Assembly: GCA_963751345.1 (NCBI GenBank)
Contig: CAVVUS010000044.1
Coordinates: 32,001 to 96,000 of the forward strand
DNA: 64,000 bases
Origin: an uncultured Chloroflexia bacterium
Lineage (GTDB): Bacteria > Chloroflexota > Anaerolineae > B4-G1 > SLSP01
Direction of reading: 5' to 3'
How positions within the stretch are numbered: the stretch's first letter is position 1; each line of letters starts with the position of its first letter. Under the pieces are notes generated by a model. It did no database searches. It saw nothing but the letters and a program-made list of their open reading frames with translations, and was not told where the DNA came from. Both the position numbers and the translations under genes were made by a program. Shown here one piece after another: positions 19,577 through 25,008 of this stretch.

Positions 19577-20884
19577 CTACTGCCCGATCTCAGCGAGGAC
19601 GTCGAGCGCAGGCTGCCAGCCCTCGTGGTACTTGAGTGCGGCATTTAGGTCAGCTTCGGCGCTCGTCAGGTCACCCTGGGCGATGCGCGCCTTTGCGCGC
19701 CACAGATAGGACTCCTCCAGGTCGCTCGCCGTGGCCAGCGTAGCATTTGCCAGGTCGACGACGTCGTCATAGCGTCCTATCTGATAGTAGGTCTCGTAGG
19801 GTCCGAACTGATACCAGAGCATTCGATAGTAGAGACCAAGTTCCCGCGTGGTGTCATAGGCCACAGCAGCCTCGTCGTAGCGCCCAAGAGCGGTCAGGTT
19901 GGTGCCTACCGTGAACCAGCCGTACGTCACCCAATCCGAACCGCACGTCGCGTAGGCGAAGCACGCGTCAGGCGGCGTGCCGATCTCCGCCTGCGCACGT
20001 GCCAGCGCTTGCTCGTACATCGACGTGTCATCCATATCCGGGCCGATGAGTGTTGTCAGCTCGTCCCAGCGATCGGGTGACGCGACTACGAGATAGGTCC
20101 AATCAAAGACACGCCAGAGTTCGCCGAACTCTGCGTAGGACATATAGGTGGGCGGATCGTAGAGCGAGTCGTACAGGTTGAGCTCTTGGGTCGTGTCGTC
20201 GTATCCGATGACCAGCCTGAAGTGGCCGAGTTGGTCGCGTGCATCGCGGACATACCACGTCTCCACGATCACGGGATAGCCGGCTCGCAGGAGCGCCTTG
20301 ACCCCGTCAAGCGTACCTCCGGCGCGGACAATGGCCTTCAGCCCGCGGTCCTCGGCATACGCTGCCATCTGTTCGATGCCGACGTGCTTGTCCTCGGGAT
20401 CGGGCTTCAGCACCGGGGCGATATCGGACTGCCGGTCGTCGAGACCCCAATACGACATTGCCATCCCCAGAGTGGTCGGACCGCAGTTGTTCCAGCCCTG
20501 TCGCTCGTGGCGGATGCCCTCAAGCAGCACCTGTGCCGGCGGCGTGGGAGTGATGGTGGGCGTTGGGGTGGGTGTCTCGGTGGGTAGGGGCGTGATCGAG
20601 GGTTGGGGCGTGCTGGTGGGCGGCGGGGTCAGGGTGGGGGTCGGTAGGGATGTCGGTGGTGGGTCCGTCGCCGATGCCGCCATTGCCGCTGGAGGCGCAA
20701 CCGCCGCACCGAGCGGCGTGGGAAGCGTCAAGGGGTGGTTACTGTGACGTAGCTCCTGGAGTTGTGCCGGAAGCAGACTGGCGTAGCGGCCCGGAAGGGC
20801 CCGCACGACAGTGGGGATGGCTAACAGAGCGGTTCCTACAAGAGATAGCGCCACGATGACTACGATGTAGTGTATCTTACGCAT
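19577..20884 (-). CDS. C39-like cysteine peptidase with Pro/Thr linker and TPRs (probably leaderless)
   Basis: N-terminal TM; QGWNNCGP, GHFRLVIGYD, YDS; TPR tail; TGgTATAGT 7 nt before ATG 20884. Confidence 0.85.
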   Translation of the reverse strand: MRKIHYIVVIVALSLVGTALLAIPTVVRALPGRYASLLPAQLQELRHSNHPLTLPTPLGAAVAPPAAMAASATDPPPTSLPTPTLTPPPTSTPQPSITPLPTETPTPTPTITPTPPAQVLLEGIRHERQGWNNCGPTTLGMAMSYWGLDDRQSDIAPVLKPDPEDKHVGIEQMAAYAEDRGLKAIVRAGGTLDGVKALLRAGYPVIVETWYVRDARDQLGHFRLVIGYDDTTQELNLYDSLYDPPTYMSYAEFGELWRVFDWTYLVVASPDRWDELTTLIGPDMDDTSMYEQALARAQAEIGTPPDACFAYATCGSDWVTYGWFTVGTNLTALGRYDEAAVAYDTTRELGLYYRMLWYQFGPYETYYQIGRYDDVVDLANATLATASDLEESYLWRAKARIAQGDLTSAEADLNAALKYHEGWQPALDVLAEIGQ

Positions 20885-20920
20885 GGAGCACACTATACCA
20901 GATTTCGCGGGAGGGCAAGG

Positions 20921-21196
20921 TCAAGGGGCGGGCTGAGCCTGCGGCTCGTCGCGGTACGCCCATCTGAGACGGTCCAGACGATCGAGGTAGTTCAACACAT
21001 CTGTCGAGTCCGTCCACTGGTCGATCGCGCCCAGGCGAGGAGGAAACGCGAGCACTTCGGGATCCGTGATCTGTGACTCGAATGGCATCTGTGAAACGTT
21101 CCGCGTGGATGACAAGAAAGGGACGGTCGAAGAACTGCAAGAAGCGCACCAAGGCTCCTTTGTCCACGTCTGTGTGAGAGCATATCCTCGGCCCAC
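20921..21196 (-). pseudogene. C-terminal remnant of a DUF4037-type protein
   Basis: Two frames join to ..QFFDRPFLVIHAERFTDAI/QITDPEVLAFPPRLGAIDQWTDSTDVL, the usual C-terminus of DUF4037 proteins; no room for the N-terminus. Confidence 0.55.
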
Positions 21197-21280
21197 AGTA
21201 TCACGTCCCGGTCGTCGTGCAAGCCGGGCGGGAGTTGCGACAGGCCGGGTGCGAGAGGGCAGGAAGCGGGCGCCTGATGG

Positions 21281-22769
21281 TCATCCAATGACAGCGTTGA
21301 GGCGCCGGAGGGCAGCCTCGCGCCCGATCGCCTCGAGTGTCTCATAGAGTGATGGCGTAGCTTGGCGCCCTGAGATGGCAATCCGTAGCGCCATGTAGAG
21401 CTCCCCGCGCTTCCATCCGAGAGCCTGGACCTGGGCATCGAGCACGGTCGCGAGGCCCTCCGAAGTCCATTCGTCAGCATGCAACCTTGCGAGTGCCCCG
21501 GCGGCCGTGGCAAGCGCTCTCTGCAGCACCGTCCACGTATGACGCCGTGTGAAGCGATTCTGGCCCAGTAACTCCAGACAGCCTCTCAGGGTCCGGGTCA
21601 TAGAAGAAGAAGGAGAGCAGGTCGGGTGCTTCGTTGAGCGTCTTCATGCGTTCTCGGACCAACGCCACGATACTTTCCGTGCGCTCCGTCTCCCGGGCGG
21701 ACCGGTCCATCACCGAGATAGGCTCTGCAGCACTAACGAGCGGCAGGACTCGCCGCGTCAGATCGGGTACCGGGAGATGTCGGATATAGTATCCGTTCAT
21801 CCACAGGAGCTTGTCCCGGTCAAAGATGGCATTGGACGGACTGCAGCGGCCCAGCGAGAACGACGCCAGCAAGTCGTCAAGGGACAGAATCTCCCGGTCT
21901 GTGCCCGGACTCCAGCCGCTGAGCGCGAGGTGGTTGAGCATAGCCTCCGGCAGATATCCCATCTCCTGGAATTCCCCGATGTAGACGGCGCCGGTGCGCT
22001 TGCTGATTTTCGACCGATCGGGGTTGAGCAACAGGCCGACGTGGGCGAAGGCCGGCGGATCGAAGCCCAGTGCTTCGTAGATCTGCAACTGGGGAAACGT
22101 GTTATTGAGATGCTCAGCCCCGCGGATGACGTGCGATATCTCCATCAGATGCTCATCAATGACTGTTGCGAAGTGATAGGTCGGCATCTTATCGGATTTC
22201 ACTATCACGGGATCGCCGATCAGCGCCGCGTCCTGCTCGACGCGGCCTTGCACGAGGTCCTCCAGCACCATAGGCTTGGGCGTGAGTCGCAGCCGCAGAA
22301 CGTTCGGCCGGCCTGCTCGCAAGCGAGTCTGCACTTCGGAGGATGTGAGCGACGCGCAGCGTCCGTCATACCTCGGCGGGTGGCCCTCGGCCAGGGCGGC
22401 CCCGCGCTGAGCTGCGAGCTCGTCCGGCGTGCAGAAACAGCGGTAGGCCCGCCCGCTGTCGAGGAGCCGCTGCGCATGTTCACTGTACAACTCCAACCTC
22501 TCCGACTGCCGGTAGGGGCCGTAAGGTCCGCCGATGTCCGGCCCCTCGTCCCACTGGAGTCCTAACCACTGCAGCCCTTCCAGGATGCCCTGCTCAGATC
22601 GAGCGGTGGACCGCCGGCGGTCGGTGTCGTCGATCCTGAGGATGAACCGTCCCTGGTGCTGCCGTGCGAAGAGCAGATTGTACAGGGCGCTTCGCGCTGT
22701 GCCTACGTGGCAGTGCCCCGTTGGACTCGGCGCGATTCGGACGCGAATCGGGCTGGTTGGACTGGTCAT
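21281..22769 (-). CDS. gltX: Glutamate--tRNA ligase (frameshift ~21580)
   Basis: RIAPSPTG-HCHVG (HIGH), LRIDDTD, YRQSER, CFC..YDGRC, KISKR (KMSKS); anticodon domain LRIAISG..TPSL in the second frame. Confidence 0.95.
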
Positions 22770-22796
22770 GGGTCTCTCCTGGTCTCTTGGGGGAAC

Positions 22797-22828
22797 AAAA
22801 AACCAGCCTACTTGCGGGTAGGCTGGTT
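22797..22828 (-). terminator. Intrinsic terminator (attenuator) in the gltX leader
   Basis: Minus strand AACCAGCCTAC-CCGCAA-GTAGGCTGGTT-TTTTGTT, ~28 nt before the gltX ATG. Confidence 0.88.
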
Positions 22829-22860
22829 GGTGACTCAGGTCGTCGGTCAGCTACGAAGCG

Positions 22861-22932
22861 TCAACCGTCCCGCACGGTAGGGGGGATGGACTGCTGCTCA
22901 CGCTGCTGCCGGCCGACCAATGGGTGGATCAT
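22861..22932 (-). CDS. Gln-rich leader peptide MIHPLVGRQQREQQSIPPTVRDG
   Basis: ATG 6 nt after -10 (leaderless); CAG CAG CGT GAG CAG CAG at 22908-22891; 3' end complementary to the terminator. Confidence 0.8.
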   Translation of the reverse strand: MIHPLVGRQQREQQSIPPTVRDG

Positions 22933-22938
22933 ATTCGC

Positions 22939-22966
22939 ATCGTACAGTGGATGGCCTTATTGTCAA
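22939..22966 (-). promoter_or_regulatory. Promoter of the gltX leader
   Basis: TTGACA-N16-TACGAT. Confidence 0.8.
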
Positions 22967-23131
22967 ATGGTGCCGTCCGCCACCCTCGATGGCAGACGGC
23001 CGAGGAGGGGAGGTCATCGTGAGTAGCCATCGCACGGACGATTGTGGTTCACGCGCCCCGGGCGTACAATCTGCCAACGTCGTGCCCAGCCATACCTCTG
23101 GCGGCTGGGGACCTCAGCAAGGAGACATCGC

Positions 23132-23497
23132 ATGAACCCACCAACTTTCTCAGGGTGGCACTATCGATACCTCATCATCGCGCTGGAGCAGCGGGACCCG
23201 CCGGCGCCGTGGGGCATCCACACGAACCTCGCGTTCAACGATGTTCCCGCCTGCAACTGCCCGGCGACCTTCCATAGTGGCCTCGATGTGCACGGACGTG
23301 AACTCGGCGGGTTCTTCAATACCGACGCGACGCGGACGATCGACGCGATGGTCCCGCCCATCTCGCCGGCGACGTGGCTCACCACACCGAACGGTGCGCC
23401 GATGCTGCGCGAGGCGATTGGTGCGGCGGCCCTCTTCGAAGGCGAGATGAGCCATCACGTCCACTTGCCCCTGGCGTTGGGATTGGGGGCGGCGTGA
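23132..23497 (+). CDS. Hypothetical protein with C-terminal 'VHLPL' tail (possibly a fragment)
   Basis: AAGGAG SD before ATG 23132; stop overlaps the xylB GTG. Confidence 0.45.
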   Translation: MNPPTFSGWHYRYLIIALEQRDPPAPWGIHTNLAFNDVPACNCPATFHSGLDVHGRELGGFFNTDATRTIDAMVPPISPATWLTTPNGAPMLREAIGAAALFEGEMSHHVHLPLALGLGAA

Positions 23498-25008
23498 GGA
23501 CCTCGCCCCTGCTCGTCGGGATTGACGTTGGCACCTCCAGCACCAGGAGCATCGTGGTGACGCCGGACGGCGACGTGCTGGGCTTGGCCGCCCGCGAAAC
23601 GCCGGTCGATACGCCCCGGCCCGGCTGGGCCGAGCAGGACGCGGACGTGTGGGTCGAGACCGCGCTGTCGACGACGCGCGCCGCAATGGCTGCGGCGGAC
23701 GTCGTCCCGGAGGCCGTGCATGCTATCGGCCTATCGGGCCAGATGCATGGCACCGTATGTGTGGGCGAGTCGGGGCGACCGCTGCGCCCTGCTGTGATCT
23801 GGGCCGACCAGAGGACGGTGCAGCAGGTCTCAGAGATCCGCGCGACGCTCGGCGCGGATCAGCTGGCGGCGTGGACGGGGAATCCACTGGCGACCGGCTT
23901 TATGCTGCCGACGTGGGTCTGGCTGCGCGAGCGGGAGCCGGACGTTCTGGCAGCCACGCGTTGGCTGATGCTCCCCAAGGATTACGTCCGCTATCGTCTG
24001 ACCGGCGAACCGGGCACCGAACCGAGTGATGCTTCCTCGACCTCGCTCTTCAATCCCGCAGAACGTCGATGGAGCGAGCCGCTGCTGGCGGCGCTTGATC
24101 TGCCGGACGGGTGTCTGCCGCCCGTCCATCTCTCCACGGCTGTCGCCGGCGGCCTGTTGCCCGATATGGCCGAGGCCGCGGGGCTGCGGCCGGGCACCCC
24201 GGTGATCTATGGTGGGAGCGACCAGGCGATGCAGGCGTTCGGGAATGGCGTGGTCTCGCCGGGCGTGGTCTCGTCCACCATCGGCACGGGAGGGCAACTC
24301 TTTGCGCCGACGGATCGGCCCGTGGTCGACGCGCCTCGGCTGCGGATGCACAGCTTCTGTCACGTCCTGCCCGACCTCTGGCACGTCGAGACCGCTATGC
24401 TTTCGGCAGGGCTATCGCTACGTTGGCTGAGGGATCAGGTGCTGGGTGTGGCCTCCTACGACGAGATCGTGGACGAGGCGCAAGGTGTGCAGCCGGGGGC
24501 GGATGGCCTCCTCTTCCAGCCCTACCTCGCCGGCGAACGCACGCCACACATGGATCCGCGCGCCAGAGGCAGTTTCGTCGGGTTGACGCGACGGCACACA
24601 CGCGCGCACCTAGCGCGGGCCGTGATGGAGGGCGTTGTCTTCGGCATGCGGCAGGGGCTCGACGTGATGCTGTCGTTGGGCGTGCCCGTGGACCGGATCG
24701 TGGCCTCTGGGGGCGCGACACGGCATCCGCTGTGGCTACAGTTGCAGGCCGACATCTACGACCGGCCTATTCACCGCACCGCCTCAGGGGAGGCCGCGGC
24801 GATGGGCGCCGCACTGCTGGCGGGCGTGGGTGTGGGCCTGTTCGCAGATGCACAGACTGCCATTCGCAGTGCCGTCCGCTGGCACGAGGGTGTCGTCCTG
24901 CCCGATCCGGGTCGTGCGAATCTCTATCAGCGTCACTACCAGCTCTACTGCGACCTATATCCTGCATTGGCGTCGACTGATTGGTCGCTGGGGACAACGG
25001 CTCAGTGA
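23494..25008 (+). CDS. xylB: Xylulokinase (FGGY family)
   Basis: GIDVGTSS, GLSGQMHG, PKDYVRY, SDASST, PYLAGERTP, RAVMEG. Confidence 0.92.
   Translation: MRTSPLLVGIDVGTSSTRSIVVTPDGDVLGLAARETPVDTPRPGWAEQDADVWVETALSTTRAAMAAADVVPEAVHAIGLSGQMHGTVCVGESGRPLRPAVIWADQRTVQQVSEIRATLGADQLAAWTGNPLATGFMLPTWVWLREREPDVLAATRWLMLPKDYVRYRLTGEPGTEPSDASSTSLFNPAERRWSEPLLAALDLPDGCLPPVHLSTAVAGGLLPDMAEAAGLRPGTPVIYGGSDQAMQAFGNGVVSPGVVSSTIGTGGQLFAPTDRPVVDAPRLRMHSFCHVLPDLWHVETAMLSAGLSLRWLRDQVLGVASYDEIVDEAQGVQPGADGLLFQPYLAGERTPHMDPRARGSFVGLTRRHTRAHLARAVMEGVVFGMRQGLDVMLSLGVPVDRIVASGGATRHPLWLQLQADIYDRPIHRTASGEAAAMGAALLAGVGVGLFADAQTAIRSAVRWHEGVVLPDPGRANLYQRHYQLYCDLYPALASTDWSLGTTAQ

Follow-up and report, generated by a model that had tools for sequence, protein, structure and literature searches.

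By which signal might a bacterium that already encodes a glutaminyl-tRNA synthetase (GlnRS) control the gene for a second glutamyl-tRNA synthetase (GluRS)? This question is raised by a locus of an uncultured Chloroflexia bacterium (GenBank assembly GCA_963751345.1, contig CAVVUS010000044.1, positions 32,001 to 96,000 of the forward strand), in which the GluRS gene gltX2 stands behind a short leader with clustered Gln codons. We refer to this stretch of 64,000 nucleotides (nt) as the window and to the genome from which it derives as G000; all coordinates given below are positions in the window, and both the leader and gltX2 are read on its minus strand. Our analysis indicates that the leader is probably a ribosome-mediated (leader-peptide) transcription attenuator of this accessory GluRS gene.

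The first-pass annotation of this DNA had proposed a Gln/Glu-codon attenuator on gltX, and had marked a promoter, an upstream open reading frame (uORF), a codon cluster, complementary RNA segments, a U-tailed terminator and the start of gltX. We found all of these on the minus strand where it had placed them, and its proposal is supported by the conservation of related leaders, by codons that match the downstream genes, and by folding of the RNA under a ribosome mask. The features of the locus, including a Shine-Dalgarno (SD)-like motif in front of gltX2, its orthologues in two related genomes (G002 and G004) and the minimum free energy (MFE) structure of the leader, are as follows.

22939 to 22966, minus strand: sigma-70-type promoter with the -35 element TTGACA (22966-22961), a 16-nt spacer and the -10 element TACGAT (22944-22939); 10 of 12 consensus matches

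22861 to 22932, minus strand: leader open reading frame of 23 sense codons, MIHPLVGRQQREQQSIPPTVRDG, with the stop codon TGA at 22863-22861; orthologous uORFs in G002 and G004

22891 to 22908, minus strand: putative regulatory codon cluster CAG CAG CGT GAG CAG CAG (Gln-Gln-Arg-Glu-Gln-Gln), uORF codons 9-14; Glu-Gln-Gln kept in all three gltX2 leaders

22838 to 22918, minus strand: predicted hairpin 1:2 (anti-antiterminator), with a 5' arm beginning with GGTCGGCCGGCAGC (22918-22905 and further inward) and a 3' arm ending in GCTGACCGACGACC (22851-22838); MFE structure of the free leader

22862 to 22874, minus strand: predicted 5' strand of the antiterminator, TGCGGG (22874-22869) and GGTTG (22866-22862), overlapping the uORF stop; from ribosome-mask folding and a swap test

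22877 to 22881, minus strand: CCTAC segment, proposed in the first-pass annotation as a third pairing partner

22813 to 22829, minus strand: predicted 3' strand of the antiterminator, CAACC (22829-22825) and CCCGCA (22818-22813), equivalent to the 5' arm and loop of the terminator; from ribosome-mask folding

22795 to 22828, minus strand: predicted intrinsic terminator, AACCAGCCTAC / CCGCAA / GTAGGCTGGTT, a stem-loop (22828-22801) followed by a T-run; -18 kcal/mol

21281 to 22780, minus strand: gltX2, with the SD-like motif AGGAGAG (22780-22774), an ATG at 22769 and a stop at 21281 in another frame; PF00749 and TIGR00464

The ATG of the uORF (22932-22930) lies 6 nt past the -10 element, and given this spacing translation of the uORF probably starts in a leaderless fashion. 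The same promoter geometry can be read from the sequence of the G002 orthologue. The stop codon of the uORF falls within a conserved GGTTGA block, the Gln and Glu codons are covered by the 5' arm of hairpin 1:2, and the terminator possesses a stem of 11 pairs (six of them G-C) and a loop of six nt, followed by TTTTGTT.

Scans of positions 21000-24000 returned two promoter-like sites (0.5 +/- 0.7 in shuffles) and two terminator-like sites (1.1 +/- 1.2 in shuffles); by themselves, such consensus scans are unremarkable, and chance alone leaves a single locus unsettled. The leader (163 nt) has a folding energy of -59.6 kcal/mol (z = -3.27), and one of 200 shuffled sequences folded equally well. 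The window element stands above chance because it is conserved in related leaders: a covariance model derived from these scored it at 127.9 bits (E ~1e-28).

To model the nascent transcript, we cut the RNA before the 3' arm of the terminator and masked 28 nt as an assumed ribosome footprint; the values obtained are those of thermodynamic models, not measurements. In the MFE structure of the free window leader, the codon region (22918 inward) is paired with the stretch that follows the stop codon (to 22838), and the terminator forms alongside. With the ribosomal A-site placed at codons 5-16, a range that includes all Gln and Glu codons, the masked MFE structure paired TGCGGG with CCCGCA and GGTTG with CAACC. 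On average, the 5' arm of the terminator was paired with a probability of 0.15 in the free leader; this value rose to 0.52-0.59 for A-site positions from codon 5 to codon 16 and was back at 0.15-0.20 for codons 17-23. Two of the three antiterminator pairings that had been suggested for this locus are thus found in the masked nascent RNA; the third, between CCTAC and GTAGG, is not kept in the G004 orthologue, as judged from reading the sequences. The G002 leader displayed a switch pattern like that of the window. Across 82 related leaders, mean pairing of the terminator arm was 0.43 in the free, 0.71 in the stalled and 0.38 in the late state; the stalled value exceeded both other states in 75 of these leaders, and did so by at least 0.15 in 52 of them.

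The gene behind the leader encodes a member of the GluRS family. The open reading frame at 21474-22769 matched Pfam PF00749 with 324.8 bits, and its first 390 residues scored 434.2 bits against the bacterial glutamate--tRNA ligase model TIGR00464 (curated cut-off 289.95); the corresponding scores of the G002 and G004 orthologues were 466.4 and 465.5 bits. Three PF00749 genes are present in G000: those for GlnRS (TIGR00440, 741.7 bits) and a first GluRS (TIGR00464, 530.6 bits), and gltX2. The genome also encodes an asparaginyl-tRNA synthetase and gatB, and each of the tRNAs Gln-CUG, Gln-UUG, Glu-CUC and Glu-UUC is represented by a single gene. The survey of glnS, gatCAB and a second gltX that the first-pass annotation had recommended hence recovered GlnRS, gatB and the first GluRS; its premise of a genome that lacks GlnRS and therefore relies on a non-discriminating GluRS fails, and this rationale is inapplicable as written since GlnRS is encoded. 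A protein search detected the gltX2 paralog (66-100% identity) in only three of the 71 genomes of the family, namely G000, G002 and G004, and all remaining matches in these 71 genomes had 38-56% identity, the level of the first GluRS. Because the paralog is restricted to three genomes and is set apart from the first GluRS, the gene under putative control is that of an accessory second GluRS (GluRS2) and not the housekeeping one. A contig search with generic GluRS peptide patterns taken from the GluRS2 alignment yielded distant GluRS genes only (36-52% identity) and no orthologues.

The leader element stands upstream of each of the three gltX2 genes. Their uORFs, MIHPLVGRQQREQQSIPPTVRDG, MIHPLIDQQRREQQSMPSILRDG and MRSTVVFEQEQQPIPRNPRDG, each contain three to four Gln and one to two Glu codons and terminate within GGTTGA; the codon clusters read QQREQQ, QQRREQQ and EQEQQ, with E-Q-Q common to all. 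Conservation of the uORF and of its Gln cluster in orthologous leaders had been set beforehand as a test on which the attenuator proposal could fail, and an in-frame uORF with E-Q-Q is present in all three.

The 3' half of the gltX2 leader shares 81% identity, over 77 nt, with a leader that precedes the citrate synthase gene (PF00285) in the same genome, and these two are the only copies of the scaffold in G000. The uORF of the citrate-synthase copy (L024, C40:25921-26070) reads MILLLASRQPNKPQPMPPSTRGG. Given this identity of the 3' halves, the citrate-synthase leader of the same genome is the most likely source of the gltX2 leader. A covariance model built from 17 leaders (R1) detected the element in 41 of the 71 genomes of the family, and a second one, based on 52 leaders (R2), gave hits in 94 of the 145 genomes of the order, with 51 of 70, 28 of 48 and 14 of 26 genomes in its three families. 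No match at E <= 1e-4 was obtained with R2 in 150 other genomes sampled from the phylum, a result that doubles as a control for the specificity of this model. On the evidence of these sequence matches, the window element appears to be one member of an order-wide scaffold family. At four loci, two complete units of uORF plus terminator are arranged in tandem; the gene behind them is that of citrate synthase in three genomes and glnA in the fourth (L052 in G080, L064 in G082, L213 in G032, L206 in G090); these doubled units look like tandem attenuators.

We compared leader codons and downstream genes in 93 leader instances, 53 from the family search and 40 from the order-wide search. Downstream genes were identified by BLAST against reference proteins, by Pfam searches on representatives and by reading N-termini by eye; for prolyl-tRNA synthetase (ProRS; proS), Pfam confirmed the labels of L175, L193, L189 and L198, and the others rest on N-terminal similarity judged by eye. 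Six of the 93 instances were dropped from the uORF table by the script (terminator not found in L028, L041, L175, L194 and L203; uORF not found in L182), and a further four (L048, L178, L201 and L176) were put aside as wrong picks; automatic picking chose the wrong frame in some leaders. When the dropped and set-aside entries were read by eye, Pro-rich uORFs were seen in L175, L176, L182 and L203, and QQQ in L048. The leaders group by downstream gene as follows.

Citrate synthase, about 35 leaders: a mix of Gln and Pro codons, with Arg (RQPNKPQP, RQQPKP, SQQKQQPNP)

Glutamine synthetase (glnA), 19 leaders: 3-9 Gln codons (..NNQQQR.., ..RNQQQQQP.., ..VQQQQQQC..), up to nine consecutive Gln; in one leader the script took the wrong frame and QQQ was read from the sequence by eye

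ProRS (proS), 19 leaders (17 of the bacterial and 2 of the archaeal type): recovered uORFs with mostly 4-6 Pro and at most one Gln codon, e.g., MMGYILPAPSSPQPYPFRGFG

proC, 1 leader: Pro-rich, MTNCATPAPSSFLPFPSRGDG

gltX2, 3 leaders: the Gln and Glu codons described above

Argininosuccinate synthase (argG), 2 leaders: RRR and RRARR (..DIRRRAQ.., ..TARRARRE..)

GlnRS, 1 leader (L204 in G027): QQQQQ, MNTFTYNTQQQQQPSFIQSPG

Other genes: ornithine carbamoyltransferase (OTCase) 1, amino-acid-binding proteins 4, metallophosphoesterase 3, and a few unresolved

Exceptions to the Pro rule are L201, in which the Pro-rich uORF is cut short, and L178, in which it is weakly Pro-rich. In L201 (G100, proS), an in-frame TGA interrupts the uORF after 12 codons (MMGYTFPAPGSP); the leader may have decayed, the stop may be recoded, or the sequence may contain an error. 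The GlnRS gene associated with L204 (TIGR00440, 654.4 bits) starts about 280 nt downstream of its leader and is a second synthetase gene behind a Gln-codon leader.

Gene-specific codon content of this kind, as read from the sequences, is a hallmark of ribosome-mediated attenuation. It bears directly on the alternative that the leader is a structured RNA which binds a metabolite, a protein or a tRNA in a riboswitch-like or T-box-like manner, with the uORF being incidental. The scaffold would suit such an RNA in several respects: its sequence is highly conserved (the GGTT(A/G)(G/A) block, the CAGCC words and the terminator arms), an invariant inner helix is predicted, the outer helix of hairpin 1:2 (P1) covaries as expected of a riboswitch, and half of the uORFs possess no SD-like motif. 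Yet the amino acid specified by the variable block matches the gene that follows (Gln for glnA, glnS and gltX2; Pro for proS and proC; Arg for argG), which a single ligand-binding fold would not predict; since the leader codons follow the downstream gene, one such RNA is hard to reconcile with the data. Moreover, an in-frame ATG without an intervening stop lies ahead of the conserved stop codon in 81 of the 83 curated leaders, and insertions and deletions within the variable codon block come in multiples of three. An SD-like 4-mer precedes a start codon in 41 of these 83 leaders, compared to 196 of 1660 (12%) control windows. The leader found no match in Rfam (cmscan of positions 21000-25000, E <= 10), including the T-box (RF00230) and the glutamine riboswitches (glnA RNA, Downstream-peptide and Glutamine-II), and regular T-boxes occur at other places of this genome. 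We therefore regard a ligand-binding RNA as improbable. Six T-box matches were found elsewhere in G000, three of them above the Rfam gathering score (C14:126863, C18:123492 and C30:211375, besides three weaker ones), so that T-boxes and candidate leader-peptide attenuators coexist in this genome.

The alternative structures were assessed in an alignment of 17 leaders. RNAalifold, applied to the MAFFT alignment, recovered only the invariant inner helix and the terminator; P1 and the antiterminator were written by hand. The OFF structure (P1, inner helix and terminator) was 90.4% paired with seven pairs changed on both sides, a number reached by one of 500 shuffles. Changes on both sides affected four of the six pairs of P1 and three of the 11 pairs of the terminator stem, the latter being 96% paired. 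The antiterminator was 87% paired, compared to 18-50% when it was slid along the alignment, a lenient control since this structure had been derived from one of the aligned sequences. When spacers were shuffled, terminator-arm pairing across the family was 0.73 versus 0.54, and in 23 of 47 leaders at most three of 60 shuffles did as well. In a swap test, the antiterminator strands of the three gltX2 leaders paired with their own terminators better than with 92%, 93% and 99% of foreign terminators, the window leader accounting for the value of 92%; the mean for the family was only 64%. Across genera, the antiterminator strands change together when compared by eye, with no formal statistic; one genus, for instance, has GGGGAGGACGGTT paired with AACCGGCCTTTCC. 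The locus and its family combine a leader open reading frame, enrichment of cognate codons, an intrinsic terminator before the gene and a 1:2 hairpin over the codons, as in leader-peptide attenuators.

A further alternative is control through the nascent peptide or the context in which its translation ends, as in an arrest peptide. Ribosomes would then halt at or close to the stop codon because of a conserved peptide end (..R-D/G-G-stop, preceded by Pro-Pro); a small molecule, or the activity of a release factor or of EF-P, might be what is sensed, and hungry Gln codons would not be the signal. Nearly all leaders end in Gly-stop, many of them with PP or PxP a few codons upstream, and the citrate-synthase leaders of the window's own genus keep a specific peptide, RQPxKPQP, instead of a codon run. 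The Gly-stop is, however, encoded by the GGTTAG / GGTTGA block; since this block is the antiterminator strand, its conservation is explained by constraints on the RNA. In addition, several leaders stop three or eight codons later with a different C-terminus, a ribosome stalled at the stop codon would cover the antiterminator strand and thereby favor termination, and the gene-specific codon runs would be left unexplained. An arrest peptide is consequently an unlikely explanation, and attenuation through stalling at the cognate codons is the reading that we pursue further.

Does the leader act on gltX2 at all? The gltX2 gene is frame-broken in the assembly: a +1 break near 21586-21600 stops the N-terminal frame at ..DPDPE, and the C-terminal 100 residues run on in another frame to 21281. 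A tblastn search with the intact G002 orthologue likewise found the window gene split over two frames. Promoter, uORF and terminator might thus form an independent small unit (a small RNA, a micro-protein gene or a decayed remnant beside a broken gltX2) without a role for this gene. In the part of the literature that we consulted, a trans-acting attenuator RNA is described for rnTrpL, and in two relatives such units can stand apart, since the glnA leader L210 (G061) and the OTCase leader L209 (G091) are separated from their genes by a promoter-like site (TTGACA..TATACT, about 100-300 nt downstream) that lies between the leader terminator and the gene; here, the leader might be a unit of its own, or the gene might be served by two promoters. 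In the window, on the other hand, the T-run of the terminator (22795) ends just 25 nt ahead of the gltX2 ATG (22769), which leaves no space for a further promoter, and no other promoter-like site precedes the gene. Furthermore, intact orthologues stand behind the same leader in G002 (495 aa) and G004 (518 aa), and gatB of G000 (C10:223253-224686) is likewise broken up, with its four pieces lying in different frames, a pattern that points to sequencing indels. An independent unit is accordingly the reading to which we give very little weight, and we continue to treat the leader as a cis-acting attenuator of gltX2. Downstream of gltX2, the minus strand of the window (19577-20893) encodes a protein of 438 aa in which a signal-like N-terminus is followed by a long Pro/Thr-rich linker and which contains a Peptidase_C39_2 domain and a TPR repeat.

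A number of observations weigh against an attenuator of gltX2. The frame-broken gene could be a pseudogene, for which an assembly indel is the more likely explanation because gatB is split in the same assembly. The switch is unclear in G004, with a terminator-arm pairing of 0.64 in the free leader against 0.54-0.79 in the stalled one. The leaderless geometry that the first-pass annotation had described holds for G000 and G002 and is lost in G004, where 35 nt separate the end of the best promoter-like site from the ATG; an SD-like motif is missing before the uORF in all three gltX2 leaders, so that leaderless initiation is assumed for G000 and G002, and it is absent from 42 of the 83 curated leaders. 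The codon cluster of the window comprises only four Gln codons and one Glu codon, and the words CAGCAG and CAGCC could be kept for pairing and not for decoding. Covariation had been anticipated for both terminator and antiterminator pairs; it is seen in the terminator stem, as described above, and compensatory changes were found in none of the 14 antiterminator pairs of the 17-leader alignment, because both strands are almost invariant. Shuffling of the spacer gave no signal for the three gltX2 leaders, for which 30, 22 and 22 of 60 shuffles were equally good. With GlnRS present, it is not obvious why a GluRS should respond to Gln codons. Finally, we infer the transcription start, the 3' end of the transcript and readthrough from the sequence; a search of sequencing runs yielded no RNA data set for this genome, and the six DNA runs listed contained only 5-14% of the sampled words.

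Based on these data, the attenuator would work in the following way. From the TTGACA/TACGAT promoter, RNA synthesis would start at or beside the AUG of the 23-codon leader open reading frame. If no ribosome occupies the leader, the codon region would pair with the segment past the stop codon (hairpin 1:2), the terminator would form and transcription would end. During smooth translation, the ribosome would reach the UGA inside GGUUGA and cover UGCGGG..GGUUG, again allowing the terminator to form. A shortage of Gln-tRNA(Gln) or Glu-tRNA(Glu) would make the ribosome stall within the cluster and hold the 5' arm of hairpin 1:2. This stall would free UGCGGG..GGUUG for pairing with CAACC..CCCGCA, i.e., the 5' arm and loop of the terminator, so that RNA polymerase would read through and gltX2 would be made. 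Within the scaffold family, the same codon position would hold Gln, Pro or Arg, depending on the gene that is controlled.

As to the origin of the Gln codons, the data fit a leader that was copied from a Gln/Pro-type citrate-synthase leader and subsequently gained Glu codons. They also fit a GluRS2 that charges tRNA(Gln) and feeds GatCAB, given the presence of gatB; such an activity would explain why Gln codons stand beside Glu codons in the gltX2 leader. Taken together, the members of the family allow a wider, tentative proposal to which we assign a distinctly lower probability than to attenuation of gltX2 as such: an order-confined RNA scaffold, re-coded many times for Gln, Glu, Pro or Arg, may define a 'glutamate-family regulon' that includes GluRS2 as a starvation-induced tRNA(Gln)-charging enzyme feeding GatCAB. 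Citrate synthase at the entry of the tricarboxylic acid (TCA) cycle, glutamine synthetase, the synthesis of Pro and Arg, amino-acid uptake, and GlnRS, ProRS and GluRS2 would then all be tied to the charging of the matching tRNAs. GluRS2 would charge tRNA(Gln), alone or together with tRNA(Glu), and the GatCAB route would bypass GlnRS when Gln-tRNA(Gln) is in short supply.

Leader-peptide attenuation is a textbook mechanism, and its known cases cluster in the Proteobacteria and Actinobacteria and concern a handful of amino acids. The pheM-pheST leader of Escherichia coli is an example in which it governs an aminoacyl-tRNA synthetase operon. By analogy, pheM-pheST appears to be the closest known counterpart of the window element, which would work like trpL and hisL as well: in both, a short leader open reading frame rich in cognate codons is followed by an intrinsic terminator just before the synthetase gene, and a stall caused by a low level of charged tRNA serves, or would serve, as the signal. 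The window element differs from pheM-pheST in that its codons specify Gln and Glu instead of Phe, its uORF start is probably leaderless, its RNA scaffold is a different one that is confined to one order of another phylum and also stands before biosynthetic and TCA-cycle genes, and the regulated gene is an accessory paralog.

Other known systems resemble the element in part. Classical attenuators (trpL, hisL, leuL, thrL, ilvL and the actinobacterial leader peptides; PMC1262725, consulted in part) share the three-state arrangement of 1:2, 2:3 and 3:4 hairpins, with the codons in strand 1 and the stop near strand 2; here, by contrast, the targets are glnA, citrate synthase, GlnRS, GluRS2, ProRS, proC and argG, and one conserved scaffold is re-coded for several amino acids. 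Like the window leader, the T-box riboswitch (RF00230) stands before synthetase genes, senses tRNA charging and chooses between a terminator and an antiterminator; the window leader has neither a specifier loop nor a T-box sequence, and its sensing is proposed to occur via the translating ribosome instead of direct binding of tRNA. The glutamine riboswitches (glnA RNA and Downstream-peptide motifs) also accompany glutamine and nitrogen genes, whereas the signal here would be Gln-tRNA(Gln), perceived through decoding, and not free glutamine. In the Salmonella mgtA and mgtCBR leaders (PMC3641672, as far as the text was available to us), translation of a leader open reading frame chooses between alternative stem-loops, with Pro codons as the sensor as in the proS and proC members of our family; genes, scaffold and phylum differ, and what is controlled in Salmonella are genes for Mg2+ transport and virulence instead of synthetase genes. 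In line with the remark in the first-pass annotation that no Gln-codon attenuator on gltX had been described, our search of the full-text literature, outside of which subscription journals and supplements lie, returned neither an attenuator with Gln codons nor a case in which a leader peptide controls gltX, glnA, glnS or citrate synthase.

If the proposed mechanism is true, this uncultured lineage senses the sufficiency of Gln, Pro and Arg through decoding, and it possesses a second control mechanism for synthetase genes beside the T-boxes of the same genome. The scaffold would then be a natural modular attenuator whose specificity is altered by codon swaps, and the rule that connects leader codons to genes would be testable and useful for the annotation of metagenome-assembled genomes. 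For the bacterium studied here, the finding raises the concrete question of which role a second GluRS plays where GlnRS is already present.

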